DNA of 37,035 nucleotides, taken from the IMG/VR virus record IMGVR_UViG_2541047861_000014, one strand, 5' to 3'. The notes below the pieces were generated by a model. That model was not told the DNA's origin and did no database searches. It worked only from the letters and a program-made list of their open reading frames with translations. The stretch comes from a virus. Taxonomy: Duplodnaviria; Heunggongvirae; Uroviricota; Caudoviricetes. Every line of letters begins with the position of its first letter. Position 1 is the first letter of the stretch. The position numbers were made by a program, and so were the translations under genes. Positions 8,660 through 36,555 of this stretch are shown here, one piece after another.

Positions 8660-8749
8660 AACGAAATTAAAACCTTTGTACCGATAAGGTACAAGTATCT
8701 TGAAGGTTCATTTCAATCATGTAATATGTATACTGGAGGTACATATTGT
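8660..8749. promoter_or_regulatory. Immunity switch region: operators plus divergent PRM-like and PR-like promoters
   Basis: Perfect palindrome TTGTACC-GATAA-GGTACAA (8676-8694); ATGTA-N9-TACAT (8726-8744); PR candidate TTGAAG (8700-8705) - 16 nt - TAATAT (8722-8727); PRM candidate on minus strand TTGTAC - 17 nt - TTTAAT ending 6 nt before the cI ATG (leaderless-like). Confidence 0.55.
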
Positions 8750-8950
8750 ATGAAAGCGTATTGGGACTCTTTAACCAAAGAACAGCAGGGCGAGTTGGCC
8801 GGAAAAGTTGGCTCAACACCTGGCTACTTACGGCTGGTTTTCAATGGTTATAAAAAAGCCAGTTTTGTGCTGGCGAAAAAACTTGAGCAATGCACGTCAG
8901 GTGCAATTACGAAATCTGACTTAAGACCGGATATCTATCCGAAAGATTAA
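8750..8950 (+). CDS. cro: Cro-like small HTH regulator
   Basis: 66 aa from ATG at 8750 with GGAGG upstream; divergent from cI; the ORF-track start at 8645 would run through the operators. Confidence 0.7.
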   Translation: MKAYWDSLTKEQQGELAGKVGSTPGYLRLVFNGYKKASFVLAKKLEQCTSGAITKSDLRPDIYPKD

Positions 8951-8981: not shown

Positions 8982-9545
8982 ATGAGGCTAACCGTGGGTA
9001 AGTATCACTGGAAAGTAGAAAAACAGCCTGAGTGGTACGTGAAAGCTGTCAGAAAAACTATCGCAGCGTTGCCGGGTGGTTACGCTGAAGCAGCTGACTG
9101 GCTGGATGTAACAGAGAACGCATTATTTAACCGCCTTCGTGCCGATGGCGATCAGATTTTCCCGCTGGGATGGGCAATGGTTTTACAGCGCGCGGCTGAC
9201 ACTCACTACATTGCGGATGCTGTCGCACAGTCTGCTGGTGGGGTGTTCGTATCGCTTCCTGAAATTGAGGAAGTAGAGAACGCCGATATAAACCAGCGCC
9301 TGCTGGAAGTCATCGAACAGATCGGGAATTACTCAAAGCAGATTCGTTCGGCAATCGAAGATGGGGTCGTGGAGCCACACGAGCAGACAGCAATTAATGA
9401 TGAGTTGTATCTGTCAATTTCGAAGCTCCAAGAGCATGCAGCACTGGTCTACAAAATCTTTTGCGCTCCAGAAAAGAGTGACGCCCGCGAGTGTGCAGCT
9501 CCGGGCGTCGTGGCGTTTTGTGTCTGTGGAGAAACTAACGCATGA
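8982..9545 (+). CDS. Early regulatory protein in the cII position (possibly CII/CP76-like)
   Basis: 187-aa ORF directly after cro; family assignment from memory only, weak RBS. Confidence 0.4.
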   Translation: MRLTVGKYHWKVEKQPEWYVKAVRKTIAALPGGYAEAADWLDVTENALFNRLRADGDQIFPLGWAMVLQRAADTHYIADAVAQSAGGVFVSLPEIEEVENADINQRLLEVIEQIGNYSKQIRSAIEDGVVEPHEQTAINDELYLSISKLQEHAALVYKIFCAPEKSDARECAAPGVVAFCVCGETNA

Positions 9546-10378
9546 ACAGTTTAACGGCAAATAACCGTTTGTCGCAACAGCTGGTGGTCAGTGTCGCTGA
9601 ACACCTGTTGTTACGGCATGAATGCAGATTACCAAATCACCTGGCTGTAAGTAACCACAGAGAACTTTACCTGACTGTGGGGGGCGAGTTGTGCGGGAAC
9701 TTAACCGCTGGTTTCGTGACGGAAGAGGGCTTTATGTCCATGTTATTCGTTGGGAACCAGAAACACAGCGCGTTATCTATCTTCGCAAAGACTACCCGCA
9801 TGAGTGCTTTAGTCCTTTGTGGAAATTCAGGCGTGATTTTGTTGAGTGTGAAGGACCACCAGCACATTGATTCTGCCATTCCGGGACGTTACACTGTTCA
9901 GGCACCTTATAAAGCGGGTGACGGGATTGGCGTCCTGGAAATGTTATCGGCGATATATGACGCGCCAGCGTCTTTTTTATCGTCTGTGTCTGTGCACACC
10001 CAAATTATGGTGGGCTGGACGGGGGCACCGAAAGGTGCGCCGGTTTCCGATAACGCCGGTTACGCCAACCCCGTTCAGTTCACCACCAGCGAAATTGGCG
10101 TTTCCGGTGGTGAAGGTAATTCACTGTTATCGGAGGCTGCCATCATGGCTACTGTCCCAGCCCTCACTCGTCTGAATGATGAAGACTTACATAAACTCAG
10201 TTATGTAACAACTGCACTACGTGCTCTGCGCAAGGTAACTCTTTCGGATCCGCAGGCGCATCAGGTTTTGGTAGAAACCCTTCTTAACTTGCAGGCTGAA
10301 CGTATTCGTCTGGCGGATAAGGCTAATTTTCATATTCACCGTCTCCTGAATATCAGCGGAGGGCATCGTCATGCTTAA
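9542..10378 (+). CDS. Hypothetical early protein (278 aa)
   Basis: ORF coupled by ATGA overlap to the upstream gene; no recognised motif. Confidence 0.5.
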   Translation: MNSLTANNRLSQQLVVSVAEHLLLRHECRLPNHLAVSNHRELYLTVGGELCGNLTAGFVTEEGFMSMLFVGNQKHSALSIFAKTTRMSALVLCGNSGVILLSVKDHQHIDSAIPGRYTVQAPYKAGDGIGVLEMLSAIYDAPASFLSSVSVHTQIMVGWTGAPKGAPVSDNAGYANPVQFTTSEIGVSGGEGNSLLSEAAIMATVPALTRLNDEDLHKLSYVTTALRALRKVTLSDPQAHQVLVETLLNLQAERIRLADKANFHIHRLLNISGGHRHA

Positions 10379-10607
10379 TCCGTTGATCCTCAATATTTGC
10401 CGTTTGCTTCAGCGTAAAAAAACATCAATTCCTACAGTTGGGCAGTGGTACACCACGCCTGCAGGGCATGTTCTACGTGTTAGCCTGGTTGACCGTGAAT
10501 GTCAGAAGGTGATTTGTGAACCGCTGGGCCGTAATTACCGCATCAGTATGCCGCTTATAGCCTTTTGCTCCGGAAAAAACATGAAGCATCTCGGAGGTGC
10601 AGCATGA
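10371..10607 (+). CDS. Hypothetical small protein (78 aa)
   Basis: GGAGGG RBS 8-9 nt upstream; stop overlaps the start of the replication gene (ATGA). Confidence 0.5.
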   Translation: MLNPLILNICRLLQRKKTSIPTVGQWYTTPAGHVLRVSLVDRECQKVICEPLGRNYRISMPLIAFCSGKNMKHLGGAA

Positions 10608-11422
10608 GTATGGAGCTGATGGTTAAAGCGATGAAAATTCGAGTGGGTAATCCATTGCGAAAACTGGTTCTGATCAAGCTGGCTGATAATGCCAGCGATC
10701 AGGGTGAGTGCTGGCCCAGCTACCAGCATATTGCTGACCAGTGCGAGATTAGCAAACGTTCTGTGATGAATCATATTGCGGCCCTTTGTGATTCCGGGCT
10801 GGTAAAAAAAGTCACCCGGAAAGGTGAAAAAGGTAACTCAAGTAATATCTATCTCCTTCATCTTGATGGTGCAGGAGATTCACTAGGGGGTAGTGCAAAT
10901 AATTCACTATCTGGTGCAGCAAATTCACCAGGTAGTGCAGGAGTTGCACCAGGGGGTGGTGCAGGAGATTCACCCAGAACCAGTCACTCTTTTGAACCAG
11001 TCAAAGAACCAGTCAATGAACCAATAGCTGTTGGTGCATCTGCTGATGAGTCTGTGCGAGTTCGTTCAAACCGACCGGAATACTCTCCGGAGTTTGAGCA
11101 GGCATGGCTGGCATACCCCAAACGTGCTGGTGGCAATTCAAAATCTGCAGCCTTCAAAGCCTGGAAAGCCCGTTTGAATGAGGGGGTAAAACCCGAAACC
11201 ATGCTGGAAGGTGTGAAACGCTACGCGGGCTGGGTATCTGCGATGGGTAACAGCGGCACACAATTTGTGAAACAGGCTGTCACGTTCTTTGGTCCGGATC
11301 GTCATTTCGAAGAATCCTGGGAAGTTCCTGCGGTATCTGCAGCCAGACGCGAGGACCCGTACTTCAAAGCCAGTTACGACAACGTGGACTACAGCCAGAT
11401 CCCGGCAGGATTCAGGGGGTAA
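10604..11422 (+). CDS. Phage replication initiation protein (O-like replisome organiser, N-terminal HTH), with internal iteron-like repeats
   Basis: ATG at 10604 with GGAGG at 6 nt; N-terminal HTH (SYQHIADQCEISKRSVMNHIAAL); Gly/Ser/Ala-rich linker encoded by DNA direct repeats; conserved C-terminal region (EFEQAWLAYPKR...). Confidence 0.65.
   Translation: MSMELMVKAMKIRVGNPLRKLVLIKLADNASDQGECWPSYQHIADQCEISKRSVMNHIAALCDSGLVKKVTRKGEKGNSSNIYLLHLDGAGDSLGGSANNSLSGAANSPGSAGVAPGGGAGDSPRTSHSFEPVKEPVNEPIAVGASADESVRVRSNRPEYSPEFEQAWLAYPKRAGGNSKSAAFKAWKARLNEGVKPETMLEGVKRYAGWVSAMGNSGTQFVKQAVTFFGPDRHFEESWEVPAVSAARREDPYFKASYDNVDYSQIPAGFRG
10868..11020. repeat. Iteron-like direct repeats inside the O-like gene (candidate replication origin)
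   Basis: About five imperfect ~21-24 bp repeats (consensus roughly GGTRGTGCAnnAnnTTCACYA), including a perfect 16-bp copy GGTGCAGGAGATTCAC at 10868 and 10958; followed by GAACCAGTCAA repeats at 10994-11017. Confidence 0.55.
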
Positions 11423-11424
11423 TC

Positions 11425-11913
11425 ATGAGTCTTTTGAATGAAGTTCAGAAATTCATTGAAGCCCATCCGGGGTGTACTTCCGGAGACATTGCAGATGCTT
11501 TTGCAGGTTACTCACGGCAGCGCGTTCTGCAGTCAGCAAGCAAGTTACGTCAGAGTGGGCGTGTGGCTCACCGTTGTGAAGGAGATACACGCAGACATTT
11601 CCCGCGCCTGACTGAGAGAGCGCAGGAGCCGGAACCACAACCAGTTCGTGAAACCAGACCTGTGCGCAATTTCTATGTCGGCACTAACGATCCCCGGGTA
11701 ATTTTGTGCCTGACCCGCCAGGCTGAAGAACTGGAGTCCAGGGGCTTATACCGTCGTGCTGCAACCGTGTGGATGGCGGCATTCCGTGAAAGCCACTCCC
11801 AGTCAGAACGAAACAATTTTCTGGCGCGCCGTGAGCGGTGCTTACGGAAAAGCAGCAAGCGCGCTGTATCGGGTGATGAGTGGTATCTGTCAGGGAATTA
11901 CGTGTGGGCTTAA
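11425..11913 (+). CDS. Putative transcriptional regulator (PerC-like C-terminal region)
   Basis: 162 aa; C-terminal LESRGLYRRAATVWMAAFRESHSQSERNNFLARRERCLRK resembles PerC-family activators (from memory). Confidence 0.4.
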   Translation: MSLLNEVQKFIEAHPGCTSGDIADAFAGYSRQRVLQSASKLRQSGRVAHRCEGDTRRHFPRLTERAQEPEPQPVRETRPVRNFYVGTNDPRVILCLTRQAEELESRGLYRRAATVWMAAFRESHSQSERNNFLARRERCLRKSSKRAVSGDEWYLSGNYVWA

Positions 11914-12239
11914 TGACGACGTTAACTCAATGCCAGCAGCAGGTGCTGGATATGCTGATTTCTTATCAGAAAGAACGTGGTTTCCCGCCAACCAATCAGG
12001 AGGTGGCAGCCATGCTGGGATACCGTTCGGTGAATGCAGCGGTGGAGCATCTTCGCGCACTGGAGAAAAAAGGCGTCATCACGATAAAGCGTGGCGTGGC
12101 CCGGGGTATCACGCTTCATACCACAGTGAAGGACGACGACAGCGAGGCAGCCGGGATTATCCGTGCACTGCTTGCCGGTGAGGAAAACGCCAGACTGCGT
12201 GCAGCCCACTGGTTACATGAGAGGGGCCTGAAAGTATGA
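11913..12239 (+). CDS. LexA-N-terminal-like winged-helix DNA-binding protein
   Basis: MTTLTQCQQQVLDMLISYQKERGFPPTNQEVAAMLGYRSVNAAVEHLRALEKKGVI matches the LexA DNA-binding-domain pattern; no peptidase domain; TAATG overlap with upstream gene. Confidence 0.55.
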   Translation: MTTLTQCQQQVLDMLISYQKERGFPPTNQEVAAMLGYRSVNAAVEHLRALEKKGVITIKRGVARGITLHTTVKDDDSEAAGIIRALLAGEENARLRAAHWLHERGLKV

Positions 12240-12644: not shown

Positions 12645-13442
12645 ATGAATAATCTGATGGTTATTGATGGTATTGAAGTTCGTCGTGATGCTTATGGGCG
12701 TTACAGCCTGAACGATCTGCACAGGGCTGCTGGTTCTCTGGATAAGCATAAGCCCGCATTCTGGCTCCGCAATGAGCAAACTGAGCGTTTAATAAGCGAG
12801 TTGCAGATTTGCAACTCGGTCAATATAGAGCCAGTTAACGTTATTCGTGGCGGAAATAACCAGGGGACGTATGTCTGCAAAGAACTGGTGTATGCCTATG
12901 CAATGTGGATCAGCCCGTCATTCCATCTGAAGGTGATCCGTACTTTCGACATGGTAACCAGCGCACCGGAAAAATTATCCGGACAGGCTGCTGACAAGAT
13001 GCAGGCTGGTGTGATTCTGCTGGACTTTATGCGCCGGGAATTAAACCTGTCTAACTCTTCAGTGCTTGGTGCCTGCCAGAAACTCCAGGAGGCTGTTGGC
13101 TTACCGAATCTGGCACCGCGCTATGCCATTGATGCTCCTGCTGATGCACACGATGGCTCAAGTCGCCCCACGCTGTCTCTGAGTGCACTGCTGAGGCAGT
13201 ATGGTATCCGCCTGACGGCTAATCAGGCATATCACCAGATGGTGAAGCTGGGGATCGTTGAACAACGCGAACGATACAGCCGTACCGCGATTAACAACAT
13301 CAAAAAATTCTGGTCGCTGACGGCGAAAGGCTGCATGTTCGGCAAGAACATCACCAGTCCTGCAAATCCGCGCGAGACGCAGCCGCATTTCTTCGAATCC
13401 CGATTCCCTGAGCTGTTAAAGCTGCTCGATACCGTTCATTGA
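12645..13442 (+). CDS. KilA-N domain protein (antirepressor-like)
   Basis: N-terminal KilA-N signature (RYSLNDLHRAAG ... KPAFWLRNEQT ... ELVYAYAMWISPSFHLKVI); RBS AAGAGGAG. Confidence 0.7.
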   Translation: MNNLMVIDGIEVRRDAYGRYSLNDLHRAAGSLDKHKPAFWLRNEQTERLISELQICNSVNIEPVNVIRGGNNQGTYVCKELVYAYAMWISPSFHLKVIRTFDMVTSAPEKLSGQAADKMQAGVILLDFMRRELNLSNSSVLGACQKLQEAVGLPNLAPRYAIDAPADAHDGSSRPTLSLSALLRQYGIRLTANQAYHQMVKLGIVEQRERYSRTAINNIKKFWSLTAKGCMFGKNITSPANPRETQPHFFESRFPELLKLLDTVH

Positions 13443-22192: not shown

Positions 22193-24294
22193 TGCTGAAT
22201 CAGGAAACCGCAAAGGCAGCACGAACCGATTCAGGTTATATCCTTCGCGCACCGAGACGAATGCGGGTTGCTGATGCCGTTGCTCAGTATATGCGGGTGC
22301 CCATGGGGGCCGGGAACTCAGTCCCGTGGGATCCGCTGGTGGCACCGTATGTTATTGAGCCGATGAACTGCCTGGCCTCGCGTGAATACGACGCAGTGAT
22401 ATTTGTTGGCCCGGCACGAACTGGCAAGACTATCGGCCTGATTGACGGCTGGGTGATTTACAACGTGATTTGCGATCCTGCTGATATGCTGATCATTCAG
22501 ATGACGGAGGAAAAAGCCCGCGAACACTCCAAAAAACGACTTGCCAGAACGTTTCGCGTCAGCCCGGAAGTGGTCAGTCGCCTGAGTCCGAACAAAAATG
22601 ACAACAACGTTTATGACAGAACATTCCTTGCTGGCAACTACCTGAAAATCGGCTGGCCGTCAGTCAATATCATGTCCTCATCAGATTATAAATGCGTGGC
22701 GCTGACGGATTATGACCGTTTTCCGGAAGATATTGATGGCGAGGGGGATGCCTTCTCTCTTGCCTCAAAACGTACCACCACATTTATGTCCAGTGGTATG
22801 ACGCTGGTGGAGAGTTCCCCCGGCAGGGATGTGAAGGATGTGAAATGGCGACGGACTTCACCGCATGAGGCTCCACCAACCACGGGGATACTGTCGCTCT
22901 ATAACCGTGGCGATCGCCGTCGCTGGTACTGGCCCTGTCCACACTGTGGTGAGTATTTTCAGCCCTGCGGCGATGTGGTTGCTGGTTTCCGTGATATTGC
23001 CGATCCCGTGCTGGCAAGTGAGGCGGCTTATATTCAGTGTCCTTCCTGTTCAGGACGGATTATGCCTGAACAAAAACGTGAGCTGAACGGACGTGGGGTC
23101 TGGTTGCGGGATGGTGAATCCATCAATGCGGATGGCAGTCGTTATGGTGATCCCCGACGCTCACGTATTGCGTCATTCTGGATGGAGGGGCCGGCAGCTG
23201 CTTACCAGACACTCTCGCAACTCGTTTACAAACTGCTTGCTGCAGAACAGGAATACGAGACAACCGGAAGTGAAGAAACACTCAAGACGGTTATCAATAC
23301 CGACTGGGGATTACCTTATCTTCCCCGTGCCAGCATGGAGCAACGAAAAAGTGAACTGCTTGAGCAGCGGGCAGAGCCAGTTCCTTCCCGCAGTGTGCCG
23401 GATGGCGTTAATTTCCTGGTGGCGACAGTTGATGTGCAGGCGGGACGTCATCGCCGTTTTGTGGTTCAGGTAACGGGCTATGGCAGCCGTGGCGAACGCT
23501 GGATTATTGATCGTTACAACATCACGCAGTCATTGCGCGGTGACAGCGACGGGGAGAGCCAGCGAATTGATCCGGCCAGCTATCCGGAAGACTGGGATGT
23601 CCTGCTGACGGATGTTTTTCATAAAAGCTGGCCGCTGGCCTCCGATCCTTCTCAACAAATGCGACTGATGGCAATGGCGGTGGACTCCGGCGGTGAAGAC
23701 GGAGTCACTGATAATGCCTATAAATTCTGGCGTCGTTGCCGTCGTGATGGCCTTGGTAAACGTATTTACCTGTTTAAGGGCGATAGCATCCGGCGCGCAA
23801 AACTGATCACCCGTACATTCCCTGATAACACCGGACGAACGGGCCGACGGGCGCAGGCCGCAGGTGATGTACCGCTCTGGCTTCTTCAGACGGATGCCCT
23901 GAAAGACCGGGTGAATAACGCGTTATGGCGTGACTCGCCAGGTCCCGGCTATGTGCATTTCCCTGACTGGCTGGGGAGCTGGTTTTACGACGAACTGACG
24001 TATGAAGAGCGGAGCAGTGACGGGAAATGGAGTAAGCCGGGTCGCGGTGCCAACGAAGCTTTTGACCTGATGGTGTATGCCGAGGCTCTGGTCATTCTGC
24101 ATGGATACGAAAAGATCCGCTGGCCGGATGCACCGGAGTGGGCGAGCCGGGAAACCTGGCTGGAGTGTGTCCCGGACAGTACCGAACCGTCACCCACACC
24201 GGAACCGGTATCCACGCCTGTTAAAAAACAAAAACGGAAGAAAACAGTAACTGACGATGTTAACCCCTGGCTGACTTCCGGAGGATGGTTATGA
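22192..24294 (+). CDS. Terminase large subunit (lambda gpA family)
   Basis: 700 aa; Walker A-like VGPARTGKT; CPHCGE zinc motif as in lambda gpA. Confidence 0.9.
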   Translation: MLNQETAKAARTDSGYILRAPRRMRVADAVAQYMRVPMGAGNSVPWDPLVAPYVIEPMNCLASREYDAVIFVGPARTGKTIGLIDGWVIYNVICDPADMLIIQMTEEKAREHSKKRLARTFRVSPEVVSRLSPNKNDNNVYDRTFLAGNYLKIGWPSVNIMSSSDYKCVALTDYDRFPEDIDGEGDAFSLASKRTTTFMSSGMTLVESSPGRDVKDVKWRRTSPHEAPPTTGILSLYNRGDRRRWYWPCPHCGEYFQPCGDVVAGFRDIADPVLASEAAYIQCPSCSGRIMPEQKRELNGRGVWLRDGESINADGSRYGDPRRSRIASFWMEGPAAAYQTLSQLVYKLLAAEQEYETTGSEETLKTVINTDWGLPYLPRASMEQRKSELLEQRAEPVPSRSVPDGVNFLVATVDVQAGRHRRFVVQVTGYGSRGERWIIDRYNITQSLRGDSDGESQRIDPASYPEDWDVLLTDVFHKSWPLASDPSQQMRLMAMAVDSGGEDGVTDNAYKFWRRCRRDGLGKRIYLFKGDSIRRAKLITRTFPDNTGRTGRRAQAAGDVPLWLLQTDALKDRVNNALWRDSPGPGYVHFPDWLGSWFYDELTYEERSSDGKWSKPGRGANEAFDLMVYAEALVILHGYEKIRWPDAPEWASRETWLECVPDSTEPSPTPEPVSTPVKKQKRKKTVTDDVNPWLTSGGWL

Positions 24295-36010: not shown

Positions 36011-36555
36011 AAACGGGGTCTGAAGCCATCCGGGCGCTGGCCATGCAGATCCCGGCGTTTCGTCAGAAACTGAGCGACGGCTGGTACCAGGTACGCATTG
36101 CCGGGCGTGATGCAGGTGAAACCGAATTGTCTGCCCGTCTTAATGAGCCGCTGGCAAATGGTGCCGTGATCCACATCGTGCCGCGTCTGGCGGGAGCTAA
36201 AAGTGGCGGTGTGTTTCAGGTGGTGCTGGGGGCGGCGCTGATTGCGGTGGCATGGTGGAACCCTGTGGGCTGGCTGGGTGCCGCGGCTGTATCGGGCATG
36301 TATGCGGCAGGGGCCAGTATGATCCTGGGCGGAGTGGCGCAGATGCTGGCACCGAAAGCCAGGACGCCCACGGCAGCAAGTACAGATAACGGCAAACAGA
36401 ACACCTATTTCTCCTCACTGGATAACATGGTTGCCCAGGGCAATGTTCTGCCCGTTCTGTACGGTGAAATGCGCGTGGGGTCACGGGTGGTTTCTCAGGA
36501 GATCAGCACGGCAGACGAAGGGGATGGTGGTCAGGTTGTGGTGATTGGTCGCTGA
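35908..36555 (+). CDS. I: Tail tip assembly protein I
   Basis: 215 aa, overlapping the K 3' end; C-terminus ...YGEMRVGSRVVSQEISTADEGDGGQVVVIGR as in lambda gpI (from memory). Confidence 0.75.
   Translation: MAATHTLPLASPGMARICLYGDLQRFGRRIDLRVKTGSEAIRALAMQIPAFRQKLSDGWYQVRIAGRDAGETELSARLNEPLANGAVIHIVPRLAGAKSGGVFQVVLGAALIAVAWWNPVGWLGAAAVSGMYAAGASMILGGVAQMLAPKARTPTAASTDNGKQNTYFSSLDNMVAQGNVLPVLYGEMRVGSRVVSQEISTADEGDGGQVVVIGR

Follow-up and report, generated by a model that had tools for sequence, protein, structure and literature searches.

In bacteriophage lambda and its relatives (434, 21, phi80 and Stx phages such as 933W), as at the locus described here, the replication initiator is encoded in the pR operon after cII, and lambda O, like the protein studied here, joins an N-terminal DNA-binding domain through a flexible linker to a C-terminal recruiting domain. 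At both loci the linker-coding part of the gene carries four to six in-frame dyad iterons, approximately 20-24 bp apart, with a segment of lower GC content immediately to their right; the iterons begin at nucleotide 349 of lambda O and at nucleotide 266 of the gene analysed here. Among lambda-type phages the number of iterons differs between relatives and alters the length of the protein (PMC7466680). P22 likewise has iterons inside its initiator gene, gene 18, where a rep_origin is annotated, and in gene 18 of phage L six 11-bp repeats were interpreted as the origin solely on the basis of sequence (PMC8022706), just as is done below. Iterons within initiator genes are the accepted reading of the origin for lambda, P22 and phage L (PMC8022706, PMC7466680), and to read in-gene iterons as an origin is routine in phage genomics. 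For 34 of 314 lambdoid phages, which have only an O-type gene, replication is described as 'not yet understood' in the passages available from a recent paper (Casjens, Smith; Genome Res 2025, PMC12315714), and a paper on Eru typing states that nothing is known of the replication proteins of non-lambdoid Stx phages (PMC8951638).

The window, by which we mean the whole stretch of 37,035 nucleotides that was analysed, belongs to a lambdoid phage of the SfV type, as judged from sequence identity; over the 1.4 kb compared (positions 10300-11700) it shows 100% identity with Escherichia phage 2H10 (Glaedevirus) and 98-99% identity with SfV, mEp460, Ayreon and many Stx2c- and Stx2a-converting phages. 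The phage has a single replication gene (10604-11422, + strand; 272 aa), which was identified from the list of open reading frames and from Pfam and PHROG matches and is of the SfV orf39 / 2H10 gp42 type. It is labelled 'replication protein' in related phage records (SfV orf39), while the NCBI pipeline names the protein only 'helix-turn-helix domain-containing protein'. The gene sits at the position of lambda O, in the early-right operon and 3' of cro and cII: a cI-like repressor gene (7985-8659, - strand), a cro-like ORF (8645-8950) and a CII-family gene (CP76; 8982-9545) precede it, together with an Ash-family gene and a 78-aa ORF. This last ORF (10371-10607) was considered as a conserved partner and rejected, a homologue being found in just 3 of 87 loci. 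The genes on the 3' side encode PerC-like, LexA-DBD, RusA, KilA-N and DUF968/HNH proteins and a Q-like antiterminator. An earlier remark, in a first-pass annotation of this DNA, that no P- or DnaC-type loader follows was borne out, with none among the downstream genes or in the annotated 2H10 genome; helicase, primase and polymerase genes are equally absent from the annotation of the complete 2H10 genome.

Initiators of this type are widespread: of 5,426 complete E. coli genomes, 897 carry a copy that is nearly full-length, and the type also occurs in Stx2c- and Stx2a-converting phages, in the Shigella serotype-converting phage SfV and in the cdt-carrying phage cdtI. The mEp460 protein is 98.5% identical to that of the window, and the family as a whole matches 5,587 initiator clusters spread over the Gammaproteobacteria. 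The records of SfV, mEp460 and Ayreon contain no origin annotation.

Within the gene, the pattern GTGCANNNNNTKCAC (GTGCA-N5-TKCAC, 15 bp) matches the + strand five times and occurs nowhere else in the 37 kb; shuffled sequences gave a mean of 0.27 matches, and the observed count was reached in none of 100 shuffles. The matches lie at 10869-10883 (iteron 1, GTGCA-ggaga-TTCAC), 10893-10907 (iteron 2, GTGCA-aataa-TTCAC), 10914-10928 (iteron 3, GTGCA-gcaaa-TTCAC), 10935-10949 (iteron 4, GTGCA-ggagt-TGCAC) and 10959-10973 (iteron 5, GTGCA-ggaga-TTCAC), with dyad-to-dyad spacings of 24, 21, 21 and 24 bp. Each 15-mer is an imperfect dyad, GTGnA / TnCAC; the arms of iteron 4 are perfectly palindromic, and it matches on both strands. 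All five are in frame in the gene 10604-11422 and fall within residues 89-141. The five direct repeats reported by the first-pass annotation are thus present at the place it gave, and both arrays were recovered by Tandem Repeats Finder, the kind of check it had suggested. Its perfect 16-bp duplicate at a distance of 90 bp exists but is in fact 17 bp long (TGGTGCAGGAGATTCAC, 10867-10883 and 10957-10973), and its count of two GAACCAGTCAA copies was in error: GAACCAGTCA occurs three times exactly (10977, 10994 and 11006), with no other exact copy in the 37-kb window.

The encoded protein contains the Pfam domain HTH_36 (PF13730) at aa 17-67 (E = 2.8e-11; 43.5 bits against a cut-off of 25) and matches PHROG 270 (E = 1.5e-88) and PHROG 8540 (E = 2.8e-61), both annotated 'replication initiation (O-like)'; by these profile matches it belongs to HTH_36 and to PHROG 270/8540. 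AlphaFold2 predicts an N-terminal winged-helix DNA-binding domain (aa 1-88; 10604-10867, + strand) of topology H-H-H-H-beta-beta, with a pLDDT of 72-94 per 10-residue block, a predicted recognition helix at approximately aa 49-64 (ISKRSVMNHIAALCDS) and a wing loop KGNSSN at aa 76-81. It is followed by a G/S/A/P-rich segment, residues 91-157, that is unstructured in the model (pLDDT <50), and by a C-domain of four helices (aa 160-229; 11081-11290, + strand; helices modelled at 162-229 with a pLDDT of 56-76) with the motif EFEQAWLAYPKRAGGNSKSAAFKAWKARL. Since residues 91-157 are unstructured between two folded domains, the repeats encode an inter-domain linker; their earlier placement between an HTH N-domain and a C-domain, and the description of a flexible Gly/Ser/Ala-rich linker, both agree with the model.

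Membership in better-known initiator families was not found. Pfam gave no match to Phage_rep_O at E <0.01, alignment of lambda O with the family by hhalign gave a probability of 1% (no detectable homology), and BLASTP of P22 gp18 against the initiator gave E >1 (no similarity). Foldseek returned generic winged-helix proteins, with DnaD-N among the top matches at a non-significant E of 0.03, and yielded no identification for the C-domain; the DnaD_N profile scored 23.2 bits, under its cut-off of 27, and DnaB_2 was without a match in Pfam. The names 'primosomal protein I' and 'DnaD domain' carried by some records are unsupported above threshold. The C-domain does match PHROG 26426, PHROG 1701 ('DnaD-like helicase loader', a name that is annotation only) and PHROG 9327 ('primosomal protein'). 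Assignment to the plasmid Rep_3 initiators was rejected, there being no Rep_3 match and almost no carriage on plasmids: 29 of 72,556 plasmid records match the initiator, mostly phage-sized episomes of approximately 40 kb, and none of the 72,556 is a small plasmid with the gene as its replicon, so that a natural minimal replicon was not found.

The repeats might be low-complexity coding sequence, generated by slippage, which provides a flexible Gly/Ser/Ala linker and has no role as DNA. The segment does encode a disordered G/S/A/P-rich stretch, copy number does change by duplication of units, and the SNPs of close alleles do not clearly spare the arms (4 of the 13 variable sites among 65 close alleles lie in arms, too few to separate arms from spacers). 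When synonymous codons were redrawn 20,000 times for the same peptide, however, 96% of the draws contained no match and the maximum was two; since resampling never reached the observed five, the Gly/Ser/Ala peptide does not of itself dictate the DNA repeat. The homologues also speak against slippage. A scan of one genome per species gave 80 loci, from Pseudomonas, Shewanella, Vibrio, Marinomonas, Aeromonas, Enterobacter, Erwinia, Xenorhabdus, Photorhabdus, Yersinia and others, which were reduced to 72 linkers by removal of near-duplicates, and an array was defined as three or more dyads, each with arms that are palindromic at 4/5 positions or better. Arrays were found in 48 of the 72 non-redundant linkers, whereas the equal-length downstream region, the upstream region and shuffled linkers each gave 0 of 72. 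Spacings were predominantly 21 bp (55 cases) and 24 bp (55), followed by 22 bp (21) and 23 bp (16), and 25 of the 48 arrays contain one copy that is out of frame with the rest, at a spacing of 23 + 22. Such an off-frame copy translates as 'VVQEIHQG' rather than 'GAGDSPG', yet its DNA motif is unchanged; a peptide-level explanation therefore fails, and in the homologues compared the constraint on the repeats acts on the DNA and not on the peptide. Comparing the identity of arms and centres in these arrays is partly circular, the sites having been selected on their arms, and for this reason we rely instead on the control regions, the reading-frame result and the covariation described below. With palindromic arms and a half-site that covaries with the recognition helix added to these findings, the slippage account is already disfavoured and we regard it as most improbable.

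Phages that share only the N-domain (47-54% identity) have dyads of their own in the corresponding position, and these share the 5-N5-5 geometry and the spacing of 21/24 bp; three copies of GTGAY-N5-GTCAC are found in Vibrio phage D160 and three of GGGCA-N5-TGCCC in phiXuzhou21-Stx2a, while Pectobacterium phage ZF40 has repeats at the same place outside the 5-N5-5 register. Phages with a different N-domain and the same C-domain (phiP27, SfIV, Stx1_132418, Tritos and DC1) have quite different repeats. Copy number is variable: a 66-bp duplication has brought the number of copies in phage cdtI to eight, and E. coli alleles with 1, 2, 5, 7, 8 or 9 iterons were found, the two-dyad allele on 64 contigs. 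In SF6, an isolated phage, just one dyad is present, and it is slightly degenerate.

Across approximately 70 homologues the classes of half-site track the recognition helix and wing. The helix S(K/R)RSV(M/I)NHI is paired with the half-sites GTGCA and GTGAA, and the same helix with Arg replacing Asn56 (...MRHI) with GTGAC. A helix (S/G)RSTVKxH(I/V)R with the wing ELNQSN accompanies GGGCA, GGTCA or GGGCG, SKSAVRNHI accompanies TGCCA, and DRSTVR(K/R)HIK is found with a repeat in another register. Covariation of this kind would be expected of an N-domain that reads the repeats, and points indirectly to binding. A description of this family-wide recognition code was not found in the searchable literature.

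Comparison of the homologues also revealed an invariant DNA box of 29 bp (CAGAACCAGTCACTCTTTTGAACCAGTCA, 10975-11003), which iteron 5 adjoins; the first-pass annotation had noted no more of it than its GAACCAGTCAA copies. At the level of the family its DNA is CAGAACCAGTCACTCTTYTGAACCAGTCA, encoding PRTSHSxEPVxEP right after the array in every homologue. The box contains GAACCAGTCA twice, at 10977-10986 (R-T-S-H) and at 10994-11003 (E-P-V-K), in two reading frames; the third copy (11006-11015, E-P-V-N) is present in part of the homologues examined, and one allele has a fourth. The best match to the box has at most two mismatches in 66 of 73 non-redundant homologues, as against 9-12 in controls from the 2-kb flanks, and in 47 of the 48 arrays the last dyad starts 16 nt from the box; in the window, too, the start of iteron 5 and the C of CAGAACC are separated by this family-wide fixed distance of 16 nt. 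The codons AGA, ACC, AGT, CAC, TCT, GAA, CCA and GTC of the box are 92-100% fixed in genes whose GC3 ranges from 0.39 to 0.90, and at conserved amino-acid columns of the N-domain the commonest codon is used in just 56% of cases; pairwise identity at third positions is 0.90 in the box versus 0.46 in the N-domain. The box is furthermore the GC minimum of the family-averaged profile (0.39-0.41 versus approximately 0.55 in the flanks), within a low-GC stretch of approximately 45 bp and 40% GC that is far less AT-rich than the lambda tract. By these measures it is constrained as nucleic acid. No description of the box was found in the searchable literature.

Domain-shuffling breakpoints lie directly after the box, and sequence diversity among the 65 close alleles jumps at the same point. 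The N-domain, the iterons and the box are thus, in the phage genomes compared, one inherited unit, and tblastn against phage genomes showed the N-domain (aa 1-137) and the C-domain (aa 142-272) to be swapped independently between phages. The C-domain is probably an exchangeable module that recruits a partner.

The iterons might bind the initiator and the box be conserved for some reason other than opening of the duplex, either as the peptide motif PRTSHSFEPVxEP combined with an mRNA signal (a rare-codon pause or recoding) or as a patch of homology for exchange of the C-domain. In favour of this, the breakpoints lie immediately 3' of the box; the peptide is conserved as well; the rare codon AGA opens the box and is preceded in 75% of homologues by CCC, a Ty1-like +1 slippery context; the -1 frame always hits TGA inside the box; and two genomic copies (L124 and L133) are frame-shifted within the array, so that the ORF leaves frame before the C-domain. 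A peptide motif alone, however, cannot fix third positions over that range of GC3, the same 10-mer is used in two frames, and it is at the level of DNA that the distance to the last dyad is kept constant. The box DNA is still conserved in classes with ACC-AGA or CAT-AGA in place of CCC-AGA, and programmed frameshifting at CCC-AGA was rejected because this context is missing from whole sub-classes that keep the box. An Rfam scan of 10300-11700 returned just one sub-threshold miRNA match and no family, and single-strand folding of the array was unexceptional (z = -1.8). We therefore consider it unlikely that the box is conserved for such a reason. A long-range complement between 10663-10672 and 10975-10984 (10/10) was put down to chance, its upstream arm not being codon-conserved in homologues. 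A search for DnaA boxes detected none within several kb of the array.

A DnaC-like gene, a DnaB-like helicase or a primase-helicase is encoded directly 3' of the initiator in 38 of 87 loci, which ties the family to replication. The type of C-domain found in the window stands beside DnaC-like genes, with or without DnaB, in phiP27, Stx1_132418, 75/02, DC1 and the loci L094, L096, L097 and L098; it occurs with no such genes downstream in the window phage, cdtI, Salmonella 118970_sal3, D160, SfIV, Tritos and the locus L095. Since this C-domain accompanies DnaC-like loaders elsewhere, the simplest interpretation is that host DnaB and DnaC are recruited through it, and this is probably the case in the window phage.

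Taken together, these comparisons lead us to conclude that the five repeats are probably the initiator-binding iterons of the phage origin, located, in the manner of lambda, inside the initiator's own gene. The sites are non-random, unique in the window and not implied by the peptide they encode; arrays recur in the linkers of homologues and not in control regions, and off-frame copies keep the DNA motif. The covariation of half-site and recognition helix, the phasing of the last dyad to the box, and the codon invariance and GC minimum of the box argue in the same direction, as do the position of the gene at that of lambda O, the helicase or loader genes next to 38 of 87 loci, and a variable number of iterons like that between lambda and Stx phages (PMC7466680). 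The first-pass reading of the repeats as iterons is upheld in particular by the dyads that are kept as DNA in another frame and that covary with the recognition helix. Of its comparison with lambda, the layout is supported by the homologues; 'O-like' holds as an analogy, as the hhalign result makes clear.

The dyads could alternatively be operators, used for autoregulation or as a transcriptional roadblock, with the true origin elsewhere. Everything that points to binding by the N-domain serves this possibility equally well, winged-helix proteins of such a fold (the Foldseek matches) are mostly transcription factors, and the NCBI name says nothing beyond an HTH domain. Operators, however, are usually found at promoters, and a promoter scan detected no promoter-like site in or near the array or the box; helicase or loader genes are linked to the family; and the array is always located in the linker and keeps a fixed distance from the invariant box of low GC, a layout characteristic of origins. 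A purely regulatory role with an origin elsewhere thus appears distinctly improbable. Origin binding and autoregulation can coexist.

If the repeats are origin iterons, dimers of the N-domain would bind each 15-bp dyad through the half-site GTGMA, and the spacing of 21/24 bp, approximately two helical turns, would put all dimers on one face of the DNA, where the phased dimers could build an O-some-like nucleoprotein complex. The last dimer would then lie at a fixed distance from the low-GC box (10975-11003), at which the duplex may open and the helicase enter. The phage is without a loader or helicase of its own, and the host DnaB-DnaC complex would probably be brought in by the C-domain. As in lambda, transcripts that start at pR and run through the gene would cross the origin. 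The origin segment that we propose is 10869-11003.

Several observations count against an origin here, namely the one- and two-dyad alleles, the single dyad that precedes the box in SF6, and one E. coli allele that has no box, although prophage alleles may be defective. The locus has no strong AT-rich tract, no GC-skew inflection was seen at the array, no small plasmid replicon is based on the gene, and the SNPs of close alleles do not significantly avoid the arms. For lambda, two iterons plus the AT-rich tract were enough in vitro, according to a paper that cites Wickner and McKenney (PMC7466680). Low copy numbers are for this reason not fatal to the proposed origin; the low-copy alleles rather indicate the last dyad plus the box as its core.

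More tentatively, and as a possibility that we rate somewhat below an even chance, the box may be a DNA element common to all members of a very large family of phage origins, remaining identical while the specificity of the iterons, the C-domain and the helicase partner change. It would then be the actual site of opening and helicase entry, and either a conserved host factor or the invariant portion of the initiator would recognise its sequence, perhaps in single-stranded form. One dyad plus the box would constitute a minimal origin, and initiator-only phages would load host DnaB directly at the box.

A possible model for such recognition is found in iteron plasmids (Rep_3 / WH1-WH2 initiators; pPS10, F, R6K and RK2), in which direct-repeat initiator sites lie beside an unwinding element and the initiator binds one strand of that element sequence-specifically. 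The window protein differs from the Rep_3 initiators in having a single HTH_36 winged helix, and in that its sites are internal to the gene, not upstream of it. In comparison with lambda, the window phage is without a P gene or other loader, the half-site and the protein family differ, and the strong AT-rich tract is replaced by the invariant box of approximately 40% GC with its GAACCAGTCA direct repeats. In P22 and L, gene 18 is followed immediately by gene 12, which encodes a DnaB-type helicase, whereas the window phage has no such gene.

There is also a parallel with phage LLS and the modules with only an O homologue, which, in the passages available from the LLS paper, have a single gene of origin-binding type and no helicase or loader, like the window phage (PMC12315714). 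Those passages contain no description of iterons or of an origin and mention lambda_2H10 solely as nearest relative of the Q protein of LLS; mEp460_4F5, a phage in the LLS comparison, has a name close to that of mEp460 (PMC12315714). With 10869-11003 as a target that is mutable by synonymous changes, initiator-only lambdoid replication becomes directly testable, and the segment may offer a handle on replication, and hence on toxin-gene dosage, in Stx phages with such an initiator. Relative to the in-gene iterons of lambda, P22 and L, what goes beyond a routine assignment here, on the comparison of homologous sequences, is the family-wide recognition code and a codon-invariant 29-bp box locked to the last iteron.

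Directly downstream of the last iteron in the linker-coding part of the initiator gene lies a 29-bp element, CAGAACCAGTCACTCTTYTGAACCAGTCA (the box; window positions 10975-11003), which is nearly identical at all codon positions in homologues as far apart as those of Pseudomonas, Vibrio and E. coli, and which occupies the equivalent position in the homologous initiator loci L004-L007 and L094-L173. The rare arginine codon AGA is used in the box of every homologue, and a TGA inside the box is always met by the -1 frame. A search of E. coli genomes yielded one match consisting of the 37-nt box region alone, within an HTH gene that was otherwise dissimilar. The box also contributes one arm of a perfect 10-nt inverted repeat, ACTGGTTCTG / CAGAACCAGT, which joins the N-domain coding region to the box (10663-10672 versus 10975-10984); because the codons of the upstream arm (10663-10672) are not conserved among homologues, this pairing of sequences is probably due to chance.

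Comparison of initiator protein alleles (P0042, P0030, P0016, P0020, P0009, P0024/P0001 and P0037) revealed that the natural variants of E. coli and Shigella vary by entire repeat units, carrying 1, 2, 5, 7, 8 or 9 iterons. Allele P0037 has lost both the last iteron and the box, and a fourth GAACCAGTCA unit is present in allele P0018. Two homologous loci, L124 from Erwinia rhapontici and L133 from Pseudomonas bharatica, harbour a frame shift inside the array, upon which the ORF enters the +1 frame; that of L133 reaches a stop just past the box ('...PEPVTLLNQ*'), and that of L124 goes on out of frame. Possible explanations for these two copies are a pseudogene, an error of assembly or a truncated product consisting of the N-domain only. 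Elsewhere in the window, Tandem Repeats Finder reported short tandem repeats of low score at 3028-3056, 4407-4429, 12655-12676, 22827-22844 and 36283-36309.

Of the 5,426 complete E. coli genomes, 897 contain the initiator gene at near-full length. A much larger number retain only its last 74 nt (query nucleotides 744-817), adjoining a gene annotated as yfdN (PerC family); in E. coli K-12, yfdN is part of the prophage remnant CPS-53/KpLE1. In some E. coli prophages the first 69-79% of the initiator is fused to a RusA domain (proteins P0047, P0048, P0051, P0052 and P0076), implying that the genes which separate rep from rusA have been lost by deletion.

Between cII and the initiator gene, the window encodes a 278-aa Ash-family protein (9542-10378) and a 78-aa ORF of PHROG 1153 (10371-10607); the latter overlaps the start of rep by 4 nt, and of 87 loci just 3 have a homologue of it at the equivalent place. 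Downstream, a gene at 11880-12239, overlapping the end of a PerC-like gene (11425-11913), specifies a 119-aa protein that consists of a LexA DNA-binding domain without a peptidase domain, and that may act as a LexA mimic or SOS modulator.

The initiators of phages phiP27 (locus L008) and SfIV (L012) have the same C-domain as that of the window and a different N-domain. Their equivalent linkers contain overlapping dyads of the form TCTGA-N4-TCAGA with a 15-bp period (2362-2481 of L008, 2717-2839 of L012), which constitute a second iteron family at the same position in the gene.
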